DNA from: Dictyostelium discoideum | Taxonomy: Eukaryota | Direction: 5' to 3' | Length of the DNA: 64,000 bases | Assembly: GCA_000004695.1 (NCBI GenBank) | Contig: CM000151.3 | Location: forward strand, 96,001 to 160,000 | Shown here: positions 4,020 through 59,421 of the stretch, in pieces | Layout of the letters: each line of letters opens with the position of its first letter | Position numbering within the stretch: the stretch's first letter is position 1 | Translations under genes and position numbers: made by a program | The notes under the pieces: generated by a model | Told to the model about the DNA's origin: nothing | Database searches by the model: none | Seen by the model: the letters and a program-made list of their open reading frames with translations, nothing else

Positions 4020-5000
4020 TTATTTTCTTCGATTAAATAAACAAATTGAATATATTTTCCTATTACAATTAAAATTATTAATCAAGAAAAGTGGATAATT
4101 TTTACCAAAATAAAAAGATACAAATGTTTTATTATCTTTTTTGTTATTGTTGTTGATGGTCGTTTGAATTTGTTTTTTTAAATCTTGAATTTTATCTATA
4201 ATTTGTCTTTGATTTGCTAGATCGAACCATTGCATCATATCAAAATTTTGCTCGGAATTGATAAAATTATTATGTGAACAGACACGAAATATGTTCGTTA
4301 TACAATTTAAAAAAATAATGCAGTTTCTACTATTATTATTATTATTATCATTACCAATGTTATTTAAATAACATAATAATCCTTTAAAAATATTATCATT
4401 TTTTGGAATTTCATCTAACCCGATTGATTTCTCACCAAAATCAGTGTTATTTAATGATGTTTCTAATGATGTTGATGATGGTGAGTTTGATTTTTTTAAT
4501 TCTAATAGATATTTGATGATTTTATTTGAACCTGTCTCGATTGAATTTAAAAGATCTGTTTTTGTTGGTAATTGAATTCATTTATAAATAATTTATAAAT
4601 TTCTAAATTCTTTGATTGTATTATTGCAGTTGATACATAAATTGGTGAAGAGTAATAATACCTTTGAATTTTGAAAAAGTTTCTATAAAATTTGAAATCA
4701 TTTTTAATTATTTCAAACAATTTCTTTAAATAAATTAAATCTTTACGCCAACTAGATTGATCAGACTCTTTACGCCAACAAGTTTCACCAAATTCTAAAT
4801 ATCTACAATTTCTATAAACTTTTTCTTTTAAAATACTAATTTGATTTGAATCTATTAGTTTAGTTATTGACGATACTGAATCGTAACTAAATGAATATTG
4901 GTTATACATAAATGAGAATATCTTTTTATAAATTGCTTTATTTCTAAACAATTTCCAAAATAATATTTCAATTGGTTCTATATTATCTGTAATTGTTTAT
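4020..5000 (-). pseudogene. Degenerate short paralog of the family. It has a Y-type F-box-like N-terminus (ORF 4547..4951), then a frame switch into the family C-terminal tail (ORF 4020..4238, RQIIDKIQDLKKQIQ..VSFYFGKNYP).
   Basis: Two ORFs lie in different frames, joined by continuous homology. There is an in-frame TAA at 4997..4999 and an 11-nt deletion near 5140 relative to the copy at 10860. The C-terminal tail closely matches residues 560-618 of the 1475..3331 protein. Confidence 0.45.
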
Positions 5001-5360
5001 TTTATGATTTTATTGAATGAATTAGTATTTTCTTTTCGTTCATGTTCTTCTTCATATTCTCTTTTTCTTTTTTTTACAATTTTAATCCTTTCAATTATTT
5101 CTTGTTTATTTAAGTGATTTATTTCTATACAATATTTCTTTAATTGATTTTAAATTCTTTTTCTCTAATTCACAATTATTATCATTATCTTTATCATCTT
5201 ATTAATTAAAGATGATAAAAATATATAAATTATTTTTCATTGTTGTGGTGGTGGGGGAAATTAAAAAATAAAAAAAAAAAAATATAAAAAAATATAAAAA
5301 AAAAAAAATAAAATAAAACAAATAAAAAACATTTTTATGGTGTAACGGATTTTATTTAGT

Positions 5361-5391
<31 letters not shown>

Positions 5392-5456
5392 TTTTTTTTT
5401 TTTACTATTTCTTTGAAATTTCGTTGAATATTATTTTTAAACGAATTCTAATGACT

Positions 5457-5580
5457 ACATAACCCCTGTAAGCGGTTAGCAGCCCCTTGTAATCCTTACA
5501 ACCAGTGTAGCCCACAAATCCGGCTATTCGTCTTACAGTTCCTATTAGCCGCTTACAGGGTTACTTAGTCATTTTGCGCG
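5457..5580. other. GC-rich palindromic element in AT-rich spacer. Its inverted-repeat arms are 5461-5475 and 5549-5562. It contains CCTTACAACCA (5494-5504) and CCCACAA (5511-5517). The paralogous, internally deleted version is at 11207..11275.
   Basis: Read directly. Arm 1 is aaccc(c)tgtaagcgg. Arm 2 is ccgcttacagggtt, the reverse complement with one bulge. The element is flanked by >90% AT sequence. Confidence 0.3.
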
Positions 5581-6029
5581 TTGGCGGTGTAATTAATATT
5601 TATTTATATTTTTATTATTCGCTGGAAAAAATTCATTATTTTATTAGATATTTTATGATACGTAATTTCTCATATATCTAATAAAATATTGAATTTTCTA
5701 AAATTTTTTTTTCCAGCGAATAATAAAAAAAAAAAAACTGTTTTGGTTAACCATGGGGTGATTTATTGTAATTTTTTAATAATTTTAGTTCTGTTTTTTT
5801 TTTTTAAATGGAGATATCAGAGAGATTATTATGATATTTTGAATAATTGGATCATAGTAATAAACAATATTTTTAATTTTTTTCTTTTTTTTTTTCTTTT
5901 CATTCTTTTTTTTTTTCTTTTCATTCTTTTTTTTTTAGTACTTAATCTTTATTTTTTTCATCTTTCAAAATAAAAAAAAATATTTATATAAATTTTAACT
6001 TTAAATTAAATAAATAAATAAATTTTAGA

Positions 6030-6452
6030 ATGACTGAAGAAGTGCATAAATTGAAAATTACAATATTTACTGATAAAGGGAGATCAACAATAAGTGGTGG
6101 AGGTAAGTTAATTAGAATTATTAATTTATAAATATTTAATTTTGGTTTATATATTAAAAAATGTAACATTTAATTTCATTCTTCTGGCTTTTTTAAAAAT
6201 ATAGATTTTCCTCTACCTGTATTACCTTATCCTGCACCATATACTTTTAGATTATTTGATTACGAAATTGAAGGCCCAAATTTAACCAATAAAGAATTTA
6301 AAGTAAAAACAGGTAAAATTGAATACAAAGGAGAAGAATTTGATATTCCTTCATCATCTAAGGGCTCATGGAGAGGAGTAGATGAAGAAATGGATTTAAT
6401 CTATGTTACAATATATCCAAGTAGACAACCAAAAAAAGTTTTTCATTATTAG
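6030..6452 (+). CDS. Small conserved hypothetical protein (106 aa), paralog 1. Exons 6030..6102 and 6205..6452.
   Basis: ATG, then GTAAGT donor at 6103, acceptor ...aaaatatag at 6204 in phase 1, stop TAG 6450-6452. Protein: MTEEVHKLKITIFTDKGRSTISGGG/DFPLPVLPYPAPYTFRLFDYEIEGPNLTNKEFKVKTGKIEYKGEEFDIPSSSKGSWRGVDEEMDLIYVTIYPSRQPKKVFHY. An identical exon/intron structure is at 11780..12202. Confidence 0.5.
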
Positions 6453-6762
6453 ATCTTAAAAACAGATCTGAAACAATTAAAACAAAAATAAAAAATTTTA
6501 AAATTTTATATAAAAAAATAATTATGATTAAAAAAAAAATATGTGTGGAAAAAAAAAAAAATTAAAAATTAAAAATATATTTGTTTATGGTGTTATGTTT
6601 TTTGGTAAGGTTTAAAGTGATCAAAAAATTATCATTCAAACTTGTAAAAAAACAATAATAATAAATAATAATTTAAAAACAAAATAAAGATTAATTTGCA
6701 TTATCCAATTTTTTTTTTTTTTTTTTTTTTTTTGATTTTGTTTAATTTGATTCGATTCTATT

Positions 6763-6792
6763 TGATTTGATTTGATTTGATTTGATTTGATT

Positions 6793-6796
<4 letters not shown>
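6763..6796. repeat. (GATTTG)n hexanucleotide microsatellite flanked by long poly(T); the paralogous array is at 12815..12852
   Basis: Direct reading. The ORFs 6758..6976(-) and 12810..13013(-) are translations of this repeat plus poly(A). Confidence 0.7.
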
Positions 6797-6844
<48 letters not shown>

Positions 6845-8157
6845 CATTATAATCTTTTTTCCAATTATTTCCATTATATATAAATATATTGGAAAATCTT
6901 CCATTTTCCATTTTCCGCCATAATATGGATTTTTTTTTTCAGGAAATTGGCCAACACTATTGTATACTATATTCATAACAATCTGGAAGGTTGATGGCTA
7001 TATCAAGAGGATCATCAGAAGTCCATGGGAAGGGAATTTATTGGTTTCGGAAACATCATATGGATGAATGATACATTTGAAATTTAAAACATTATTATTA
7101 ATTGAGGCATTTTTATTAGATCGAGTTAAAATTTTATTGTGGAATTTTCATAATTAATGTGGAATTTTCCACTTTTTTTTTTTTTTTTAGAAATTTTTCA
7201 CCCCTACCCCTTTTCAATTTTATTTGAAAAATAGAATGTTGATATTTGATTTGATAATTTTCAAATTATTTATTAGTAATTGTAATTAATTGAAATAGAA
7301 ACCTTATTTTATTTTATTTTTTTTAAATATAATTACTGATAGTTTTGTACTGTAATTGGTAACTCTTTATTATTGTTTTGAAAAATGGATTATTAATACG
7401 ATTCAATTCTTCTTAATACTTATTATGACCTTTAATTTTAATTTCTTTAAAAAATATGTTTCTTGATTTTTGTTCTTGTTTTGTTGAAATATTATTTATT
7501 AAATTTTTAAATTCTTTAATAAATTCATCAACTAATTCCTTATCATTATATAATGTAAAAAAAAAAAAAAAACTCTGTTTATGACAACAAAACAGTCACA
7601 ATTTTTTTAACTATAAAACAAAAATTATTATCTTATTTTAAATTTTTACTTTATTTTTTTTCCATGCGGGTTCAAAAAAAAAGCTTTTTTTTTTTTTTTT
7701 TTTTTTAGTAAACAAAATTTTTTTTTTTTTTTTTTTTTTTTTTCGCACCCCTTCATTTACTTATTTTTCTTGTTGATATCATTAAAATCAATAGTTTTTT
7801 TCAAAATGTCAAAAAGAATTATTAATTTCAATTGGTTCATATAGATTGGGAAATTAATGAATCATTTAATAAAGACAATTATTAACTTTATTTATTTTAA
7901 ATTGTAGATATATTCTCAAATCCAAAAACAGGTATGGGTCATTCAAATGATGCTCTTTCACTTTTTATAAAAGCTTAAAGAGAGATTGGTTATTATCCAA
8001 ATATTGATAAAGCAATTTTCACAACTCCAGTCACAACTTTAGCTAAAACCACTATTGATTTAACTGCCCATGTTATAACTATATTAATGTGGTGTTGAGA
8101 TCATTACAAACTATGAAGTATTTCTAGGAAAGAGATGAAGGTACTAACAAGATCTTA

Positions 8158-9064
8158 CTTTTCAAAAAGTTGATTTAACATTGACTCTTTAATAAATTGA
8201 ACATCTTCATTTGTTTCAAATAAGACAAGATCAAAAAATACTACTTTAATAACATTATTGGGATCCAAATATTTACCAACGTGGCATTTTTTTAAATCTT
8301 GGGTGATGAAATTTCATTTTAGAGAGTTTATCGATTGTATTGGTTACTAAAGCAATAAAATCTTGATTTTTCCAATCATTGTGAGAAGCTGGTGATACAT
8401 ATGGCATCATTAAAGCTGGCTTGGAGTTCCAAGTTCCAACCTATTATAAATATATATATTAATAATTGTTTTGATTTATACCACCATTTTTAACTTTGAA
8501 ATAAAAATTACCATAAATACTTACATGTGCACCCAAACCCCAAAGTTCTCTCCACTTTTCACACTCTTTGATCAATTCGTTTTCTGGTTTAATATTACAT
8601 TTTGAGAATTTTAATACGAAAACATGTCCTTCCAAAATACCAAAAAAGACACAACATAACCATACTCTTCCATGTTCTCCTCCTTTTAAATCATATAATA
8701 AAACACATGCCTTAACTAATTTCAATGGGGTATCTATAAAATAATGTAATTTTTTGATATTAATGTTGACCCAAAACCATGAAGATTGAACTACTTGTAT
8801 ATACATTCTTTTTACATCAAGTAAAGGAATTTCTGATTTTCTTCTAGAGTAATACATCTTCATCAATACAGAGTATAAAACTTTTGGTAATTGTTGATCT
8901 GAATATTTAAAAACCTTTGAGCCATATAAAATACGTTTACAGTGAGTTGGTGGTATAATATCATTATAATCGTTCGTTATTGTGGAATTTTGTAAATTTG
9001 AGGTTGATGTTAAAGTATCTGGTTTCTGAAGAGTTGTAGTAGTTGATTCATTTGATAATTCCAA
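8158..9064 (-). pseudogene. Copy A of a duplicated unknown-family gene, the 'Z' family. It is 5'-truncated at the junction with the inserted family-gene fragment at ~9078 and carries a 1-nt insertion.
   Basis: ORF 8459..9064 is homologous to 15380..16010. The donor GTAAGT after ..GLGAH is near 8508. The next exon (VGTWNSKPALMMPYVSPAS..) loses frame at caccCaag near 8312, relative to copy B. Confidence 0.5.
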
Positions 9065-9540
9065 TTTGGGAGCTTGAGCAGACTATGCTCCTAGACACAA
9101 AGTAATTTATTATAGTTTTATATATAATTATAATTTTATATATATAATTATAATTTTATATATATAATTATAATTTTATCAATTTAGATATTAAAAATAT
9201 ATTTTTTTTTTTTCTATTTATTTGTTAAGCAATCAAGAAAATTCCTCTAAGGGTGGATAATTTTTACCAAAATAAAAAGATACTAATGTTTTATTTTCAC
9301 TTTTGTTATTGTTGATGGTAGCTTGAATTTGTTTTTTTAAATCTTGAATTTTATCTATAATTTGTCTTTTATTTACTATGCGATAATAATCATGATATGG
9401 AAAATCTAAAATCAATTCATTTATTTAAATTGAGTTTGGTGATTGAAATAATGAAATTACATCATCATAATTATCAAATATATCTATTGGTAATTGAATT
9501 GAATAAAGTGTTGTATTTGGATACTTTTTCATACAATTTA
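9065..9540 (-). pseudogene. C-terminal ~100 codons plus 3' flank of an F-box/LRR-like family copy (corresponds to 1340..1800)
   Basis: ORF 9233..9415 is identical in sequence to the C-terminus of the 618-aa protein. The flank carries three copies of the 18-bp repeat. Confidence 0.55.
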
Positions 9541-10310
9541 AAATGAATGAAATGAAATATGAAGCAACATGCACATTTCACCCCATTCCAAATCGTCAAT
9601 TACTGTCTGAAATTGCATGTCTTAATAAACCTTTAGGTGTAGAATTAAAGTTTTGGAAAAAGTTACCATGTAATTCGTTTATTGATAAATATTTTTACAG
9701 TCTCCAATTTATATATTGTTTTTGTAAATTTGATAATTTTAATAAAGTAATTGAATTAAAAATTGATGGTTTACAATTTAGTCATTTAGTTAATAATGAT
9801 CTAACTCAATTAAAACATTTAAAACTTTATTCTTGTCCTTCTTCATTACATGCAAGTACATTACAACCAGGTGCTTTGATATCTTTGAATAAAAGATGTC
9901 CAACTTTAAAAACACTTGCAATTCAGGTACCATTTCATTTAATAAACAAACATTATCATGGATGTAAAATAACTAAACAATGTTTTAATGGAGATAATCT
10001 TTCAAAAAATATTTCCAAAGAATGGAATGAATTGATAGTCACACTTTCTAATAATACATCAATTGTGAATCTAACCATTTCAAATTTTCCATGCGAATAT
10101 TTTCTAGACCCAATAAAATGTTATCAATATTCAAATTTAGAATTTAATGAAAATACAATCAAATGTATATCAGATGGATTTTATAATCTTATTAAAAATA
10201 ATAAATCCATAAAATTTTTAAGATTAATAAATATTGATTGTAGTGTTTCTCCAAATTCATTTTCAGCTTTACTATTTAATTCAACGATTAAAACATTAGT
10301 TATAAATAAT
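9541..10310 (+). pseudogene. Internal segment of the same family gene in inverted orientation (corresponds to the reverse complement of ~1985..2760), fused head-to-head to the 9065..9540 fragment
   Basis: ORF 9543..10385(+) translates to MNEMKYEATCTF..., which is residues ~190-450 of the 1475..3331 protein but on the opposite strand. The junction at 9540 reads aaaatgaatgaaatgaaatatg. Confidence 0.55.
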
Positions 10311-10716
10311 TTTCTAAATTCTTTGATTGTATTATTGCAGTTGATACATAAATTGGTGAAGAGTAATAATACCTTTGAATTTTGAAAAAGTTTCTATAAA
10401 ATTTGAAATCATTTTTAATTATTTCAAATAATTTCTTTAAATAAATTAAAATTAAATCTTTACGCCAACTAGATTGATCAGACTCTTTACGCCAACAAGT
10501 TTCACCAAATTCTAAATATCTACAATTTCTATAAACTTTTTCTTTTAAAATACTAATTTGATTTGAATCTATTAGTTTAGTTATTGACGATACTGAATCG
10601 TAACTAAATGAATATTGGTTATACATAAATGAGAATATCTTTTTATAAATTGCTTTATTTCTAAACAATTTCCAAAATAATATTTCGATTGGTTCTATAT
10701 TATCTGTAATTGTTTA
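10311..10716 (-). pseudogene. Copy B of the Y-type F-box-like fragment; carries the same in-frame TAA (10714..10716) as copy A
   Basis: ORF 10300..10668 is ~97% identical to 4547..4951. The TAA shared by both copies places the nonsense mutation before the duplication. Confidence 0.45.
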
Positions 10717-11090
10717 TTTTATGATTTTATTGAATGAATTAGTATTTTCTTTTCGTTCATGTTCTTCTTCATATTCTCTTTTTCTTTTTTTTACAATTTT
10801 AATCCTTTCAATTATTTCTTGTTTATTTAAGTGATTTATTTCTATACAATATGATTTTGCAATTTCTTTAATTGATTTTAAATTCTTTTTCTCTAATTCA
10901 CAATTATTATCATTATCTTTATCATCTTATTAATTAAAGATGATAAAAATAATTTAAATATATAAATTATTTTTCATTGTTGTGGTGGTGGGGGAAATTA
11001 AAAAATAAAAAAAAAAAAAAAAATATAAAAAAAAAAATAAAAAAAAAAAAACAAATAAAAAACATTTTTGTTGTGTAACGGATTTTATTT

Positions 11091-11137
<47 letters not shown>

Positions 11138-11779
11138 TTTTTACTATTTTATTAAATATTTATTTCTTTGTTTGAATATTATTTTTAAACGAATTCAAAT
11201 GACTACATAACCCCTGTAGCCCACAAATCCGGCTATTCGTCTTACAGGGCCTATTAGCCGCTTACAGGGGTTGTGTAATTAATATTTATTTATATTTTTA
11301 TTATGGGCTAATTCTTTTTTTATTATTTAATGATAATTTATATTAAAATATGATATATTATTAATTAATATTTAATATTAATTTGTTAAATATTTTATTA
11401 AATTATAATCTCTTTATAAAAAGTGAGAAATTACTGTCATAAAATATCTAATAAAAAAATAAATTTTCTAAAAATTTTTTTTCCAGCGAATAATAAAAAA
11501 AAAAAAACTATTTTGGTTAACCATGGGGTGATTTATTGTAATTTTTTAATAATTTTAGTTCTGTTTTTTTTTTTTAAATAGAGATATCAGAGATTATTAT
11601 GATATTTTGAATAATTGGATCATAGTAATAAACAATATTTTTAATTTTTTTCTTTTTTTTTTTTCTTTTCATTCTTTTTTTTTTAGTACTTAATCTTTAT
11701 TTTTTTCATCTTTCAAAATAAAAAAAAAATATTTATATAAATTTTAACTTTAAATTAAAATAAATAAATAAATTTTAAA

Positions 11780-12202
11780 ATGACTGAAAAAATGCATGAA
11801 TTGAAAATTACAATATTTACTGATAAAGGGAGATCAACAATAAGTGGTATAGGTAAGTTAATTAGAATTATTAATTTATAAATATTTAATTTTGGTTTTT
11901 TTATTAAAAAATGTAACATTTAATTTCATTCTTCTGGCTTTTTTAAAAATATAGATTTTCCTCTACCTGTATTACCTTATCCTGCTCCATATACTTTTAG
12001 ATTATATGGATACAAAATTGAAGGCCCAAATTTAACCAATAAAGAATTTAAAGTAAAAACAGGTAAAATTGAATACAAAGGAGAAGAATTTGATATTCCT
12101 CCATCATCTAAGGGCTCATGGAGAGGAGTAGATGAAGAAATGGATTTAACCTATGTTACAATATATCCAAGTAGACAACCAAAAAAAGTTTTTCATTATT
12201 AG
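11780..12202 (+). CDS. Small conserved hypothetical protein (106 aa), paralog 2. Exons 11780..11852 and 11955..12202.
   Basis: Same structure as 6030..6452. Protein: MTEKMHELKITIFTDKGRSTISGIG/DFPLPVLPYPAPYTFRLYGYKIEGPNLTNKEFKVKTGKIEYKGEEFDIPPSSKGSWRGVDEEMDLTYVTIYPSRQPKKVFHY. Confidence 0.5.
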
Positions 12203-12409
12203 ATCTTAAAAACAGATCTGAAACAATTAAAACAAAAATAAAAAATTTTAAAATTTTTTCATAATTGAATTGATATAAAAAAATAATTATTATTAAAAAA
12301 AAAATATGTGTGGAAAAAAAAAAAATTAAAAATAAAAAATATATTTGTTTATGGTGTTATGTTTTTTGGTAAGGTTTAAAGTGATCAAAAAATTATCATT
12401 CAAACTTGT

Positions 12410-12625
12410 ATACCAGTGTTCGACCTTTTTCCACTTTTGGAAAAAAAGGGTGTTTTTTTTAATTTCCCTTCCATTCCATGTTTTTTTTAAAAACTTCCAT
12501 ATTAATATAATATTTTTTCCATTTTTTTTTTTTCAATTAACCAGGGAAGGCCGAAATTTTTTTTTTTATTTTTTTTTTGTAATATCTTAATAAACGTTTA
12601 TTAATTAAAAAAAAAAAAAAAAAAA
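12410..12625 (+). mobile_element. ~215-bp insertion present only in duplication copy B. It ends in AATAAA followed by a 23-nt poly(A), which is the signature of a retroposed (SINE- or processed-transcript-like) insert.
   Basis: Copy A at 6625..6640 (caaacttgtaaaaaaacaataataat) is uninterrupted. Copy B reads caaacttgtat|accagtgttcgacc...aataaacgtttattaatt(a)23|gtaaaatgataaataat...caataataat. Confidence 0.3.
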
Positions 12626-12727
12626 AAAGTAAAATGATAAATAATATTAATAAAAAAACAATAATAATAAATAATAATTTAAAAACAAAATAAAGATTAA
12701 TTTGCATTATCCAATTTTATTTATTTA

Positions 12728-12776
<49 letters not shown>

Positions 12777-12858
12777 ATTTTGTTTAATTTGATTCGATTC
12801 TATTTTATTTTATTTGATTTGATTTGATTTGATTTGATTTGATTTGATTTGATTTTTT

Positions 12859-12899
<41 letters not shown>

Positions 12900-15096
12900 C
12901 ATTATAATCTTTTTTCCAATTATTTCCATTATATATAAATATATTGGAAAATCTTCCATTTTCCATTTTCCACCATAATTTGGATTTTTTTTTTTCCGGA
13001 AATTGGCCAACACTATTGTATACTATATTCATAACAATCTGGAAGGTTGATGGCTATATCAAGAGGATCATCAGAAGTCCATGGGAAGGGAATTTATTGG
13101 TTTCAGAAACATCATATGGATGAATGATACATTTGAAATTTAAAATATTATTATTAATTGAGGCATTTTTATTAGATTGAGTAAAAATTTTATTGTGGAA
13201 TTTTCATAATTAAAATTATTTTTTTTTTTTTTTTTAGAAATTTTTCACCTTTACATTTTCCCTATTTTTTCTTTTTTTCACCCCTGCCCCTTTTCAATTA
13301 AAAAAAAATAGTGAAAAAAAAAGTAAATTAATAAATTATAAAAAAACAAATAAAAATAAATAAATTATATTATTAATTTTATTTGAAAAATAGAATGTTG
13401 ATATTTGGTTTGATAATTTTCAAATTATTTATTAGTAATTGTAATAAATTGAAATAGAAACCTTGATTAAGAGGTACCTCATTTTATTTTATTTTTTTTA
13501 AATATAATTACTGATAGTTTTGTACTGTAATTGGTAACTCTTTATTATTGTTTTGAAAAATGGATTATTAATATGATTCTTCTAAATACTTATTATGACC
13601 TTTAATTTTAATTTCTTTAAAAAATATGTTTCTTGATTTTTGTTCTTGTTTTGTTGAAATATTATTTATTAAATTTTTAAATTCTTTAATAAATTCATCA
13701 ACTAATTCCTTGTCATAATATAATGTAAAAAAAAAAAAAAAAAAAAACTCTGTTTCTGACAACAAAACAGTCACAATTTTTTTAACTAAAAAACAAAAAT
13801 TATTATCTTATTTTAAATTTTTATTTTATTTTTTTTCTGTGTGGGTGCAAAAAAAAGCTTTTTTTTTTTTTTTTTTTTTTTTTTTGGTAAAACAAAATTT
13901 TTTTTTTTTTTTTTTTTTTTTCGCACCCCTTCATTTACTTATTTTTCTTGTTGATATCATTAAAATCAATAGTTTTTTTCAAAATGTCAAAAAGAATTAT
14001 TAATTTCAATTGGTTCATATAGATTGGGAAATTAATGAATCATTTAATAAAGACAATTATTATTAACTTTATTTATTTTAAATTGTAGATATATTCTCAA
14101 ATCCAAAAACAGGTATGGGTCATTCAAATGATGCTCTTTCACTTTTTATAAAAGCTTAAAGAGAGATTGGTTATTATCCAAATATTGATAAAGCAATTTT
14201 CACAACTACAGTCACAACTTTAGCTAAAACCACTATTGATTTAATATTCAATGAAAACAGTTGGAATCAAAATAAATCAAAACCAATTTCAATTTATAAT
14301 TTAAATGGTAATTCAATTGAATTGAAATTATTTTATAGTGTATTAGAAAACAGTTTTAAATGTAATGAAATCCAATTCGATGAATGGATTGAATTAGTTA
14401 CAAAATCAAATGGAAAATCTTCAAAAAGATATTCAACATTCCACATTCTCAATAATCAAAATTAATGAATCAATCATTTTAAATAATATTAATAATAACA
14501 ATAACTAAAATAATAAAAAATAAAAAATATCATAATCAATAGTTGGCAAACGTACACTATTAACCAATGCTTAAGTACCAGGTTGTGTTGAAAATGATCC
14601 CAAAGAATATATACCTATCACCTTGGTTTGTAATTGGAAATGAATAATCTGTATATTCTCAAATAAACAATTAATGGTGTCGTACTATCAACTGGTTTCA
14701 AATACAATACCACATTACAATCTTGTTCAGAAAGATATTATTATTTTTATATATTTTTTAAATGTTATAAATTAATTTTTCTTTGAAAAAAAAAAAAAAC
14801 AAAACAAAATAAAAAGTACTTTTTTTTTTAAATTTAATCAAATTAATGGAAAATGTCCAAACCAAATTACAAGAATTTAAAACAAATTAATAAACTATTT
14901 TTATTTGTATAATGAATTTGAAAGTTGATTTTATTTTATTTTATCATTTGATAGATGATATTTTGGTGAATAATAATGAAAATTGTGATCCAACTTTTTA
15001 ACTGCCCATGTTATAACTATATTAATGTTGTGTTGAGATCATTACAAACTATGAAGTATTTCTAGGAAAGAGATGAAGGTACTAACAAGATCTTAC

Positions 15097-16972
15097 TTTT
15101 CAAAAAGTTGATTTAACATTGACTCTTTAATAAATTGAACATCTTCATTTGTTTCAAATAAAACAAGATCAAAAAATACTACTTAATAACATTATTGGAA
15201 TCCAAATATTTAGCAACGTGACATTTTTTTAAATCTTGGTGATGAAATTTCATTTTAGAGAGTTTATCGATTGTATTGGTTACTAAAGCAATAAAATCTT
15301 GATTTTTCCAATCTTTGTCAGAAGCTGGTGACACATATGGCATCATTAAAGCTGGCTTGGAGTTCCAAGTTCCAACCTATTATAAATAGATATTAATAAT
15401 AGTTTTGATTAATACCATTTTTAACTTTGAAATAAAAAAATAACCATAAATACTTACATGTGCATCCAAACCCCAAAGTTCTCTCCACTTTTCACACTCT
15501 TTGATCAATTCATTTTCTGGTGAAATATTACATCTTGAGAATTTTAAAACGAAAACATGTCCTTCTAAAACACCAGCGGAGGCACAACATAACCATACTC
15601 TTCCATGTGCTCCTCCTTTTAAATCATATAATAAAACACATGCCTTAACTAATTTCAATGGGGTATCGATAAAATAAAGTAATTTTTTGATTTTAATGTT
15701 AACCCAAAACCATGAAGATTGAACTACTTGTATATACATTCTTTTTCCATCAAGTAAAGGGATTTCTGATTTTCTTTTAGAGTAATACATCTTAATCAAT
15801 ACAGAGTATAAAACTTTTGGTAATTGTTGATCTGAATATTTATAAACCTTAGAGCCATATAAAATACGTTTATAGGGAGTTGGTGGTAAAATATCATCAT
15901 TATCGTTCGTTTTTGTGGAATCTTGTAAATTTGAGGTTGATGTTTAAGTATCTGGTTTCTGAAGAGTGGTAGTAGATTCATTTGTTAATCCCAATTTGGA
16001 AGCTTGGGCAGATCCATCTGAAATAGGTAACCAACATACCCTCCAGCTCTCATATGTTGTTGAAATACCATAAACATCTTCCTGACCATACATTTCAGCG
16101 ATACTTAACACGTAATTCAACGTTTGGCCATGAAGCTTATCATTCTCCATAATGTTTTTACTTGGCTTTTTAACTTCAATAATACCTATAGGTAACCCAA
16201 TTGAATTTGCAAGTACCATAATATCAGGTTTCAAATCACTAACACCAAAATAGCTTGAACAATATGCATTTATACCACATGATTTGATAATGTCATTAAC
16301 TGCGGTTCTAACATAAAAAGCAATGTCGGATTCTGTGGAGTAATGGAGGTAGCTTCCGTTTCCAAGAGACCCCCATAATAAATTGTGGCATGGAATTGGT
16401 TTTATGTCTGCTAAAATTTCAAAACTTTTCGATACCAAAGTTGCAGGTTGATGATTTTTCCCAACAGATGGATTTGACATTGAGCCTGACTTCTCACCCA
16501 AAGGAGGTAAAGCATTAGCAAAAATATCCTTCTTTGGTTCTGTATTATGTAAATTGTATATTAATTAGTTAAAAAGTTTTAAAAATTAATTTATTATGAT
16601 TTAACCTACCATACAAAATATTCTTCTTTGGTTCTGTATTATGTAAATTGTATAATTAATCAGTTAAAAAGTTTTAAAAATTAATTTATTAATTATGATT
16701 TTAAAAGGGATAAACCTACCATATAAAACATAAATATGAGTTGGAATATTGTTTTCATTTAATTTGGTTTCGATATCCAATTCTTTTTCCCCCAATCCAT
16801 CACCTACTGGTTGTTTATCGAAGATTGATAAATCTTTTGTTTTATATTGTACTCCATTATCGCTAATATATTCTGCTATTATTTTTAAAACATCATATAT
16901 TCTGTTAACTGACTCAAATTTAATTTCATCTTTTTTATTATTTAAATAAACAATACAACTAAAAGAAACCAT
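15097..16972 (-). pseudogene. Copy B of the Z-family gene. It is full-length at the 5' end (exon 1 is ORF 16664..16972) but has a premature TAA and a 1-nt deletion.
   Basis: Codon TTA in copy A (..LQKPDTLTST, ~9040) is TAA in copy B at 15941..15943, splitting ORFs 15944..16501 and 15380..15799. The downstream exon reads ..NNVIK then TAG, owing to a missing A relative to copy A at ~8290. Introns carry GTAGGT/GTAAGT donors. Confidence 0.5.
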
Positions 16973-22040: not shown

Positions 22041-24704
22041 TTTGTTATTAATAATAGTAATAATAAAAATAATGGAGCAACAACAACAACTACAACAACA
22101 ACTACTACTACAAATTCAAATTCAAATTCAACAAAATCAAAAGTAGTTGTTAATGATTCATCACCAAATTTAATAAGTGCATCACCAAAAGGGTTAGGTA
22201 GTTCACAAGGTTCATTAACAACAATTAATAATCAAAAGAAATTAACATTATCTCCACAAAGAGCAAGTTCAACTACAACAACAAGTGTAAATAAACCACC
22301 ATTGAAATTAAAGGCAATTTCAAGTCCACCAATTACACCAAATGTATCAACACCAGAGAGATGTTTTGTAATTAATGATAAGAATAAACATGTTATGATA
22401 TCATCAGAAACTACGATTCACAATGTTAGTGGACTATCATCAATTAGTACACCAATAGTTAGTGATGCTGCAATTGCAGAATTAAGTAAATGTAATGACC
22501 ATGATCAAAAGAAATTTACAATATTCTGTACAGATTGTGATCAATTACTATGTGATGAATGTTTAAATAACAATCAGCAACAACATGAAAATCATCAATT
22601 AAATAAAATCATTCAAGAAGCTGAAAAAAGAATTGGAGATATTGAATCAATGATAATTACAACTTCATTATGTCCAAATAGATTAATTAATAAAAAGAAT
22701 AAAATTGAAAAAATAATTCAAGATAGTGCATTGGTTTTAAAAGATACTAAATTGAAAATTACTACTGATATCGATACAATGATTGAAAATTTAAAAGAGA
22801 GAAAGAATGCATTGATCAGTCAAATCGATAAAGAATATGAAGAACAGAAATTAGAATTAAAAGATCAAATTGAAACTATTAATACAACAATTGTTGATAT
22901 TCAAAATAATACATCAATCACTCAAGGTATTGTTTCATTATATCTTAATCAAGTTGATTCTGAAATGTTATCAACTTCATTATTGAAAAAGTATAGTGAT
23001 CTAAAAAGAATGGATCAATTATCTGATAAACTTTCAAATAATTTAGAACAAAATATTGAATGGAAATGGGAACCTGAATATCATTTCCCACAATTATTTA
23101 CTCGTTCAAATGGTGAAAAAACTACTGTTGTATATAGAACTAAAAGAGTATCTGTTGGTGTATCTTCTTCACCAACTGGTACTGGTAGTAATGGTACACC
23201 ACAGCAACAACAACAACAATCAGCAAATGGTAATCCAACAATTATTACAACACCACCATTACCACCAATTTCAGCAAATTCACCAAGTCCAACATCATCA
23301 TCATCATCAACATTAATTGGTAATATTATTAAAAGATCATCACCACCTCATCTACCACTAAGTAGTCAAAATTATGATAATTTTGGTTCAACACCACCTA
23401 GATTAACTACAAAATTATCTTCACCAAATTTATCAATTTCAATGCCAACTTTTCCACAATCAAATTCTGTTCAACAGAATGGTAGTACTTCATCAATAAT
23501 GAAACAACAATCACATGGTAGTAAATTAAATGATAATATTAATACCAACAATAATAATTCACCAAGTCCAACATCATCATCAACAACATCTACAAATGGA
23601 TCAAATACAAAAATTCAATTAAAAAATCCAGTATTTGGTAAATTATTAACTAGAAAAGATTCTGTAATTACAGCAAGAAGAAATTGGATTTATGGATTTT
23701 CAGATCATCAAGTTGAAATTTATGATAATGTTACAAAAGTTTGGAGAGGTGGTTCAAAAATACCAAAGAAATCAATAGAGTATAGTAGTATTTATGATAA
23801 TAATTGTACAATCTATAGATTTGGTGGTAAGGAGACACCAAATGATATCTATTGTTATAATGTTGATAGAGATATTTGGGAACACAATAAAGTTAAAATA
23901 CCATCGAAAAGAAATGCTCATTGTTCAGTTTTCGATGGATTAAGATACATTTATTTAATTGGTGGTGCTGATAGAGATAGTAGTAAATTATTGGAAAGAT
24001 TTGATATTGAAACTCAACAATGGACTAAACTAGCATCCATGAAATTCGGTCGTAGTTATTTCAATGCTTTCTATCACCCTACTAAAAGATGTATTTACGT
24101 ATTGGATGGCTATGTTAATAAAGACAAGAAATCCTCTGTTGAAATGTACTCACTTGAAAAGAATCAGTGGAGTGTGATTTGTGAGATAAATCAACCAAGA
24201 TATCTTAGTGGTGTCTCATTTGATGGTTCAAAATATATAAATATAATTGGTGGTGTTGATAGATCAAACTCTCGTGATATTAAAACTATGGAAAGATTTG
24301 ATACATCAACTCATAAATGGGAAATACTAAATAATGAACCAAAATCATTACTATCTCATACTTCAAGTTCAATGAATTTAATGGTAGTTCAATCACCACA
24401 ATTAAAGAAAAATAATTCATTTTCTTCAATTTCTTCTCATTCATCTTTAAATTCTTCATCTTCAAATAATGGTATCAGTGGTAGTGGTGGTAGTGGTGGT
24501 GATAATGAAATTCCAACTGAAAAAATGCAATTCTTTAATACTTCATTTTTTGATGGTGAACAATTCATTTTTTTCTATGGTATAAATATTGATGAACATG
24601 GTCCACTCTTATATAAATTTAGTATAAAAACAAAGAAATTTGAAAAGATTCCAATCGATAATACTTTGGATTTATTTAGTACTCTAATTTTTGTTTCAAA
24701 ATAA
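21705..24704 (+). CDS. TRIM-like E3 ligase-type protein, 999 aa: N-terminal C3HC4 RING, B-box-type zinc finger, coiled-coil, Ser/Thr/Asn-rich linker, C-terminal Kelch-type beta-propeller repeats
   Basis: RING: CPNCLKVFNNPRQLECDHILCTRCIEG..CPVCDK. B-box: CNDHDQKKFTIFCTDCDQLLCDECLNNNQQQHENH. Coiled-coil: heptad-rich 300-420. Kelch-like blades: YRFGGKE, IYLIGGADRD, IYVLDGYVN, INIIGGVDRS, FIFFYGIN. Confidence 0.6.
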
Positions 24705-58059: not shown

Positions 58060-59421
58060 ATGTCTGATATAATAAAATGTATATTTTATAGTGAATTTCA
58101 TAATATATATGGTACAAAAATTTTACATCAATATCCTGAAGGTTTTGTTTCAAATGAAGTATTTGAAGGTTTTGCAGAATATATTATACCAAAACCAAAA
58201 TTATGTGGAAAAATTATAACATTGTATGTATATTCTTCTTTATATTATTTTAAATTTTATAAAGAAAATTCATTTTTTAATTTTTTTTTTTTTTTTTTTT
58301 TCTTCTCCAACAGAACAGCATTTGATTATAAAATTTTAGGATATCCAATATTAATGCAAGATGTAAAATATCATAGAAATGCATTATTATTTAATCTTTG
58401 TTTTGTTTTTGATAAAAGTACAGATACAACAAATTATAATCAAATCGTTAGAAAATTAGGCACAATATTAAGAACTTTAGAAGTAAGTTTTATAAATATA
58501 TATATATAAAAAAAAAAAAAAAATAATTAATTTTATTTTACTTTATTTTATTTTAATATATATATATATATTTAGAAGGAAACAGAATATTTATTTAATC
58601 AATCAAAAGAAATTGGATTAAAAGATCAACCAGATTTATCAAAAATATTAGAAACATTATATATTGAATTGAATACATATGGTGAAAGTACATTTACAGT
58701 TGACGATGCAAATACAATTAATGTTAAACTATTGAGTAGACCAGATGAACCACCAGAGATATTACCACACCAAGTACCGGTGTTAGTTGAAGAGATTGAT
58801 ACAACCAATGATTCAGAATGGGATTTAACTGTATTACAAATTCTACCCTACATTGATGGTATCAATTATGTTGCAAGAATATCGAAATTGACAGAAATCG
58901 ATATCAACCTCGTCAGTAGCTGTGTCCAACATTTGGTTTACTACGGTATCGTTAAGATGGTAGACATTTTTCAATACTCAAATATTTATAATCCAACACC
59001 TAAAATTAGAAAACTTGCAAGTAATTTAGACATGCAAAGAGAGTGTCAAAGATATATAACCATATCAGGCGCTACGCCATGCTCATTCGAATTCATATTC
59101 TCCCTCTATTCATCGTTAAGTATCGATACAACATTTAGAGAATATTGTTTGGAGAATTCATTAACAAGTTGGGGTATTGATGAACGTGCTTTCATTATGT
59201 TTGGTGTTATTAATGATTTCCTAAGAAGAAAACAAAGATATCCACTCTTAACCAATCTTCAATCATTAGATTCTTTACCACCATCTCATAAAAAACATCT
59301 TTTAAATGGTACTAAAAATTATGATGAAATTTGTTGTATCCTTTCAATTGGTGTTGAAGCTGTTGAAAAATTATTATTCGAAATTGCACATCCAGATTCT
59401 TTTATTGTAATTTTAAAATAA
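58060..59421 (+). CDS. nprl2: Nitrogen permease regulator 2-like protein (NPRL2, GATOR1 subunit), 392 aa. Exons 58060..58223, 58314..58482 and 58576..59421.
   Basis: MSDIIKCIFYSEFHNIYGTKILHQYPEGFVS..; ..ILGYPILMQDVKYHRNALLFNLCFVFD..; ..WDLTVLQILPYIDGINYVARIS..VQHLVYYGIVKMVDIFQYSNIYNPTPKI..NYDEICC. Collinear with human NPRL2 throughout. Confidence 0.7.

Follow-up and report, generated by a model that had tools for sequence, protein, structure and literature searches.

What is the GC-rich palindromic island that lies in the spacer between two divergent genes of Dictyostelium discoideum, and does it have a function of its own there? The DNA analyzed, hereafter the window, is a very AT-rich stretch of 64,000 nucleotides, and the island had been singled out from its letters alone as a possible small structured non-coding RNA (ncRNA) gene, the promoter of such a gene, or a MITE-like remnant. 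The answer reached here is that the element most likely has no sequence-specific function today.

Genomic context of the element

The element sits in the middle of a 790-bp spacer between a csb-family gene and its divergent partner gene, at about 210 nt and 457 nt from the two ATGs. The neighboring features in the window are the following.

4547-5240, minus strand: partner gene (DDB_G0271328 family), divergent; likely ancestral ATG at 5240-5238
5360-5403, plus strand: T24 and T16 runs, about 35-90 nt upstream of the hairpin
6030-6452, plus strand: csb-family gene DDB_G0271326 (Dicty_CAD domain), to the right of the spacer that holds the element; exon 1 at 6030-6102, intron at 6103-6204, exon 2 at 6205-6452, ATG at 6030, stop codon at 6450-6452

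Self-comparison of the window reveals a tandem segmental duplication (4595-9082 versus 10306-16012, approximately 93-94% identity including indels), and the two copies of the element in the window, named A and B, occupy equivalent positions within the two tandem repeats. This 5.7-kb duplication adjoins an inverted repeat of 768 nt with 99% identity (1982-2749 versus 9546-10313), which overlaps a 618-aa and a 280-aa open reading frame; recent duplications of both orientations are thus intermixed here. As for the partner gene, its N-terminal exon, judged by the homologues P0005 and P0009, is seemingly frame-disrupted in copy A (5238-5215, minus strand) relative to copy B (10975-10930, minus strand), and the AX4 model of DDB_G0271328 starts at an internal Met. 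From its sequence, the copy-A partner gene may be degenerating.

Two further loci, L001 and L002, were reached through csb protein homologues in the D. discoideum assembly GCA_054883475.1, whose orthologous region (L005) shares 99.6% identity with the window, copy A being identical at 161 of 161 positions. Together with the two of the window, they give four csb-family (Dicty_CAD) paralogues (window 6030-6452 and 11780-12202, L001 3001-3423, L002 3001-3422), whose exons, 88-97% identical, are more divergent than the intron (95-99%) or the promoter spacer. Pairwise Nei-Gojobori dN/dS ranges from 1.7 to 5.5, with dN of 0.04-0.12 and dS of 0.02-0.065, and the replacements, judged by eye, fall in few patches of the protein alignment. 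The comparison of these sequences suggests diversifying selection on this adhesion-like family.

A long hairpin with arms of 28-29 nt

Copy A and its parts are located as follows.

5450-5573, unstranded: copy A, the GC-rich palindromic element, full length and slightly degraded, a long imperfect hairpin delimited by arms, folding and GC content
5450-5478, unstranded: left arm AATGACTACATAACCCCTGTAAGCGGTTA, identical to the L001 left arm
5494-5504, plus strand: CCTTACAACCA, 9/11 match to the Class I motif CCTTACAGCAA, at chance level
5510-5517, plus strand: DUSE-like box GCCCACAA, 7/8 of WCCCAYAA, in the central part of the hairpin
5546-5573, unstranded: right arm TAGCCGCTTACAGGGTTACTTAGTCATT, differing from L001 and L002 by a deleted G and a G>T
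5574-5590, unstranded: G-rich tail TTGCGCGTTGGCGGTGT, mostly deleted in copy B

The contrast in composition on which attention to this site was based is real: GC content is 47.6% over 5457-5580 and 45.2% over 5450-5573, with 10.4% in the left and 16.5% in the right flank, that is, an island of 45-48% between flanks of 10-16%. The strings quoted in the original prediction were all recovered at their coordinates, namely aacccctgtaagcgg at 5461-5475, ccgcttacagggtt at 5549-5562, CCTTACAACCA at 5494-5504 and CCCACAA at 5511-5517. The terminal inverted repeat announced with them is also present, but the length given for it, 14 bp, was too short by about half, since the real arms measure 28-29 nt.

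In copy A the pairing of the arms extends over about 28 nt and is interrupted by one bulge and two mismatches, and the G deletion and the G>T of the right arm each disrupt pairing on either strand. The 124-nt unit forms a single long hairpin, the RNA fold of 5445-5585 having z = -5.5 on either strand; over 5446-5578 the values are z = -7.1 and -45.6 kcal/mol for the plus strand and z = -6.3 and -53.3 kcal/mol for the minus strand, and folding of copy A as DNA gives z = -3.8. The combination of hairpin and GC island is far above chance. A coding or exonic origin was also considered and rejected: the 51-aa stop-free frame of the element, searched with phmmer against 1.84 billion proteins, retrieves only two spurious tandem-repeat proteins.

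Four copies in paralogous cassettes

The known copies number four, and all hold the same position in paralogous cassettes, within the csb/partner divergent spacer, on D. discoideum chromosome 2. Besides copy A they are located as follows.

About 11198-11275 of the window, unstranded: copy B, truncated, still folding with -34 kcal/mol
L001 2330-2490: L001 copy, full length
L002 2344-2503: L002 copy, full length

The L001 and L002 copies lie upstream of the paralogous genes DDB_G0271196 and DDB_G0271178. The most intact copy is that of L001, with 27 contiguous stem pairs on the minus strand, including one G-U, a folding energy of -65.5 kcal/mol and z = -9.3; on the plus strand its arms pair at 25 of 26 positions. 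The four-way alignment, in which A, L001 and L002 are all full length, shows that the full-length form is ancestral and copy B derived. Copy B had been described as a paralogue that lost the internal 40 bp and retained the CCCACAA box, and this description holds, the deletion comprising 39 nt between TGTA direct repeats (5467-5470 and 5506-5509 in copy-A coordinates), but it missed a further loss of 24-25 nt, which removed the outer right arm and most of the G-rich tail.

Apart from these four, every search for the element was negative within its scope. Neither the more distant csb-like genes of L003 nor the partner-gene homologue of another strain (L004) is accompanied by it. L004 was examined as a possible empty site and discarded as such, since its homology stops near window position 5400, where a different gene abuts. 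No other terminal-repeat-like match (at most 7 mismatches in 25) occurs in the D. discoideum DNA covered, about 116 kb, and a BLAST search of the window (word size 7) with the core of the element retrieves only the paralogue. Exact patterns of the terminal repeat and of the core have no match in collections of metagenomes and prokaryotic genomes, CTTACAGGG is absent from 400-kb text excerpts of D. discoideum chromosomal sequence and of D. firmibasis, and 12-14-mers from arms and core retrieve only unrelated papers from the full-text literature.

It should be noted that in L001 a T>C change at 2417 (around window 5527) creates a minus-strand ATG inside the element, and that the automated partner-gene model of GCA_054883475.1 (505-2417) starts at precisely this ATG; the start is probably an annotation artefact.

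Rearrangement of the surrounding spacer

The spacer around the element contains other palindromes, the closest of which belongs to copy A.

5603-5735, unstranded: second, AT-rich hairpin with arms of about 50 nt (TCGCTGGAAAAAA...TTTTTTCCAGCGA), in copy A only

This hairpin is an inverted duplication peculiar to copy A, where it took the place of ancestral spacer that copy B, L001 and L002 still have, about 150 nt in length. When reverse-complemented, 5600-5672 matches the ancestral block of these three copies. At this place copy A has the downstream block GAGAAATTAC...CCAGCGAATAATAAAA copied as its reverse complement, which reads as a clear case of fold-back or template-switch mutation. In L001 and L002, about 430 extra nt lie directly to the left of the element (1860-2290 in L001). 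These extra nucleotides include another AT-rich palindrome (around 2246-2320 in L001), as well as an ATG followed by GTAAGT...TTTTAG, resembling a mini-exon plus intron. Going by the alignment of the four copies, the spacer demonstrably generates and deletes palindromes.

Absence of a Class I RNA gene signature

The most specific part of the original prediction concerned the two short strings in the interior of the element, the first compared with the 11-nt motif of the Dictyostelium Class I ncRNAs and the second with the DUSE, hence a Class I RNA gene, another small ncRNA gene driven by a DUSE, or the promoter of one. The motif had been given correctly, curated D. discoideum Class I RNAs having the form GTTGA-CCTTACAGCAA...GTCAACTG, and the 9/11 match is there, but it is at chance level: the window contains 7 matches with at most two mismatches, versus 7.8 expected. 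Likewise, the CCCACAA core is present but the full WCCCAYAA consensus fails, with 7 of 8 positions, and a strict scan for it gives no match at the element. The failing base is a G at position 1, where a simplified MEME matrix of 113 real upstream sites admits only A (0.4) or T (0.6) and gives G a frequency of nearly zero. The box is common to all four copies, as is nearly all other sequence.

In genuine Class I genes the RNA start or TGTG box follows the DUSE at a distance of about 60 nt, and the 11-mer is located just inside the RNA, adjoining the terminal stem (PMC7919456). Here the 11-mer-like string comes first and the DUSE-like box follows 6 nt later, which is the reverse of the expected order and spacing. 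No terminal stem of the GTTGA/TCAACTG type is found at the element, the bases before the 11-mer lacking a downstream partner, nor does an AAATGTG box follow the DUSE-like box at about 60 nt. The sequence where such a gene should start, from about 5570 on, becomes AT-rich after 20 nt, is deleted in copy B and rearranged in copy A, and gives no Rfam family match.

A covariance-model search with Class I alignments, which had been proposed as a check, was carried out with a model of 30 curated D. discoideum Class I RNAs and their 6-bp closing stem over the whole window, with filters off and E<=10; it returned no match overlapping 5440-5600 or 11190-11290 on either strand. None of the 4227 Rfam families reaches its gathering threshold, and at E<=10 copy A and the L001 copy give only chance-level matches (KRAS_3UTR, CrcZ, RUF6-5, LhrA, GlsR6), the best of which, RUF6-5, scores 16 bits against a threshold of 70, with E of about 1. 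The scan for tRNA and tmRNA found none. Finally, the supplementary files of PMC7919456, including the maximum-sensitivity genome-wide cmsearch output, contain none of the element's key strings.

There are arguments in favor of this assignment. The two motifs are only 6 nt apart, and although each has a chance of about 3% in a random 124-mer of the same composition, their joint occurrence there is rare, about 0.07%. Dictyostelium RNA genes typically have 45-50% GC, which the element fits. Against this stand the silence of the Class I model at both window copies, the missing terminal stem, the reversed order of motif and box, the G at the first DUSE position, the loss in copy B of the region about 60 nt past the box, which has no Rfam match, and the missing strings in the published supplements. 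Taken together, covariance model, Rfam, motif order, box base and supplements do not bear out the Class I or DUSE assignment, and we regard a Class I gene, another DUSE-driven ncRNA gene or a promoter of either at this site as extremely improbable.

Two other sites came up in the same scans. The sole strict DUSE match of the window, TCCCACAA at 23086-23093, lies inside a coding region (…EWKWEPEYHFPQLF…), and is followed about 61 nt later by a GTTGG...CCAACTG pair (23154-23178), to which the Class I model gives a weak full-length match (9.7 bits, E 2.5). This combination was rejected as a coincidence, since both of its parts fall within the evident coding region. The best Class I model match of the window, at 58138-58175 on the minus strand (19 bits, E of about 0.007), aligns to model positions 13-50 only; having neither terminal stem nor 11-nt motif, it probably reflects A/T-rich sequence that matches by chance.

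Sequence divergence among the copies

On the plus strand, 25 of the 31 stem pairs are invariant across the copies and 5 vary, by breaking only. On the minus strand, two changes in L002 produce G-U pairs, and copy A has two breaks and one bulge. No compensatory double change is found among the stem pairs of the four copies. As a transition in a stem always allows a wobble pair on one strand and on one only, the few changes compatible with wobble on the minus strand do not constitute evidence of selection.

Substitution identity of the element between copies is 95-98.7% (a divergence of 1.3-5%), and the neutral yardsticks available give 95-99% identity for the csb intron, 95-98% for the right spacer and a synonymous dS of 0.02-0.065. 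Considering substitutions only, the element is indistinguishable from neutral sequence, although four such young copies, with a neutral divergence of 2-6%, have little power to detect weak constraint or purifying selection, and it looks like a sequence that decays at about the neutral rate.

Competing explanations

Two functional explanations compete with decay of an inert palindrome, and both draw on the position and anatomy of the element. It could be a cluster of transcription-factor sites serving the divergent csb/partner promoter, its putative sites being five YTGTAA/TTACAR repeats and a G-box-like tail of the KGKGKGK type (TGGGGGT in L001 and L002). Transcription factors of Dictyostelium usually bind to GC-containing boxes that are surrounded by AT-rich promoter DNA, a pattern that the island suits, and its position in mid-spacer, together with its retention in all four cassettes and the fivefold occurrence of YTGTAA (0.15 expected), speaks for such a role. 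However, the YTGTAA repeats largely follow from the palindrome, and conservation of the island does not exceed that of the intron and the right spacer. About half of the island is missing from copy B, yet the csb reading frames of both A and B are intact, and the more distant csb-like genes of L003 have no such island. A cis-regulatory module is hence unlikely on balance, though it deserves mention.

The same hairpin could instead be transcribed by Pol II, either from the T-run at 5360-5403 on the plus strand or from the opposite strand, and its 27-bp stem diced by DrnB/RbdB, the whole being a young miRNA-like or siRNA locus. Its folding energy of -0.34 to -0.51 kcal/mol/nt is below the limit of -0.2 and comparable to that of bona fide ddi-mir hairpins (PMC11014262, PMC6161686), the MFE being -45.6 to -68.7 kcal/mol for 133-134 nt. 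T-rich tracts precede pri-miRNA and mRNA start sites in D. discoideum (PMC6161686), and copies A and B show T24 and T16 tracts and then a G upstream, like the pri-miRNA start-site motif; furthermore, the two L002 stem substitutions and a fixed A/G difference between the arms are G-U compatible on the minus strand. But T runs are everywhere in the D. discoideum genome, and the spacing of this one is not conserved, with the 430 or so extra nt of L001 and L002 intervening. The miRNA hairpin catalogue of PMC11014262 contains mir-7097, used as positive control, and no string of the element, the supplements of PMC6161686 and PMC4894637 lack the strings as well, and the window offers no complementary target. 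The stem itself has no compensatory changes, two disruptive changes in copy A and large deletions in copy B. We therefore see a diced hairpin RNA as a distinctly unlikely candidate. A more ambitious version, in which a young lineage-specific hairpin-RNA gene (miRNA-like or siRNA-generating) was co-amplified with the diversifying csb/Dicty_CAD family and acts on that family in cis or in trans, would be very doubtful.

Proposed origin as a relic palindrome

The explanation that we prefer, and to which we assign about an even chance, is that the element is an inert relic, left either by a foldback or MITE-like insertion or by template switching. MITEs and foldback elements are small non-autonomous DNA transposons with terminal inverted repeats, and arms of 26-29 nt around a short non-coding core are what is found here. 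Of the MITE-like remnant initially suggested, the anatomy and the pattern of decay fit, but a clear target-site duplication is wanting, as are dispersed copies in the 116 kb or so covered. The flanks CGAATTCAA and TTTGCTCG contain no direct repeat, and a TA/TA target duplication is possible only if, speculatively, the outer AATGAC/GTCATT represents a palindromic target (AATGAC-TA-GTCATT). The suggestion is therefore partly supported, as far as a relic palindrome is concerned, and membership in a transposon family would be conjectural. Also, a relic origin leaves unexplained the source of the GC, 45-50% in the element versus 14% in the spacer.

The history of the relic palindrome may be pictured as follows. 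A GC-rich unit of about 125 bp with near-perfect terminal inverted repeats of 26-29 bp would have arisen in the 790-bp divergent spacer, through a small foldback or MITE-like insertion or through fold-back template switching, and would have become fixed before amplification gave rise to the four cassettes of chromosome 2. Afterwards each copy drifted in a nearly neutral manner, the stem receiving no compensatory upkeep. Copy B underwent microhomology-mediated deletions, as a long palindrome would, and the copy-A spacer gained its fresh inverted duplication. At present, the main activity of the element would be structural, with extrusion of a hairpin or cruciform leading to slippage and fold-back rearrangement of the spacer.

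Significance and comparison with known systems

As it stands, the importance of the result is limited, its immediate effect being the removal of a false Class I RNA/DUSE candidate. More generally, the four copies illustrate the decay of long inverted repeats and the instability that these bring to AT-rich spacers of Dictyostelium, in the form of microhomology deletions and of new fold-back duplications. The result would gain weight if the hairpin turned out to be both transcribed and diced; the element would then be a small-RNA locus of very recent origin, linked to an adhesion-like family that is expanding and apparently under positive selection.

Compared with the Class I RNA genes and their DUSE (PMC7919456), the element shares a CTTACA-containing 11-mer (9/11), the CCCACAA core and a GC content above that of its surroundings. 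It differs in having neither the 5'/3' terminal stem nor a covariance-model score, in the wrong order and spacing of motif and DUSE, and in a non-consensus first DUSE base; moreover it is a long hairpin of 124 nt, whereas Class I RNAs have 42-65 nt and a 6-bp closing stem. With the intergenic miRNA precursors of D. discoideum (PMC6161686, PMC11014262) it has in common a stable intergenic hairpin of about 90-130 nt, a similar free energy per nucleotide and upstream T-rich tracts, in contrast to which it falls outside the published catalogue and its stem shows no compensatory upkeep. A loose likeness also exists to Plasmodium RUF6, GC-rich ncRNA genes interspersed with the var genes of an AT-rich genome.

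Palindromes produced by template switching resemble the element in that their arms are mutual reverse complements whose identity drops toward the center, and an example, the hairpin at 5603-5735, lies 30 bp away; local copying, however, fails to explain 45-50% GC, and no copy contains an unpaired source sequence. From MITEs and foldback elements it departs in lacking a visible target-site duplication and in owing its four copies to segmental duplication of the cassette, not to transposition. It resembles them in its size of about 125 bp, its non-coding nature, its near-perfect terminal inverted repeats of 26-29 bp around a short unique core, its folding into a single long hairpin, its location in a gene-proximal spacer, and its decay through point changes and internal deletions.
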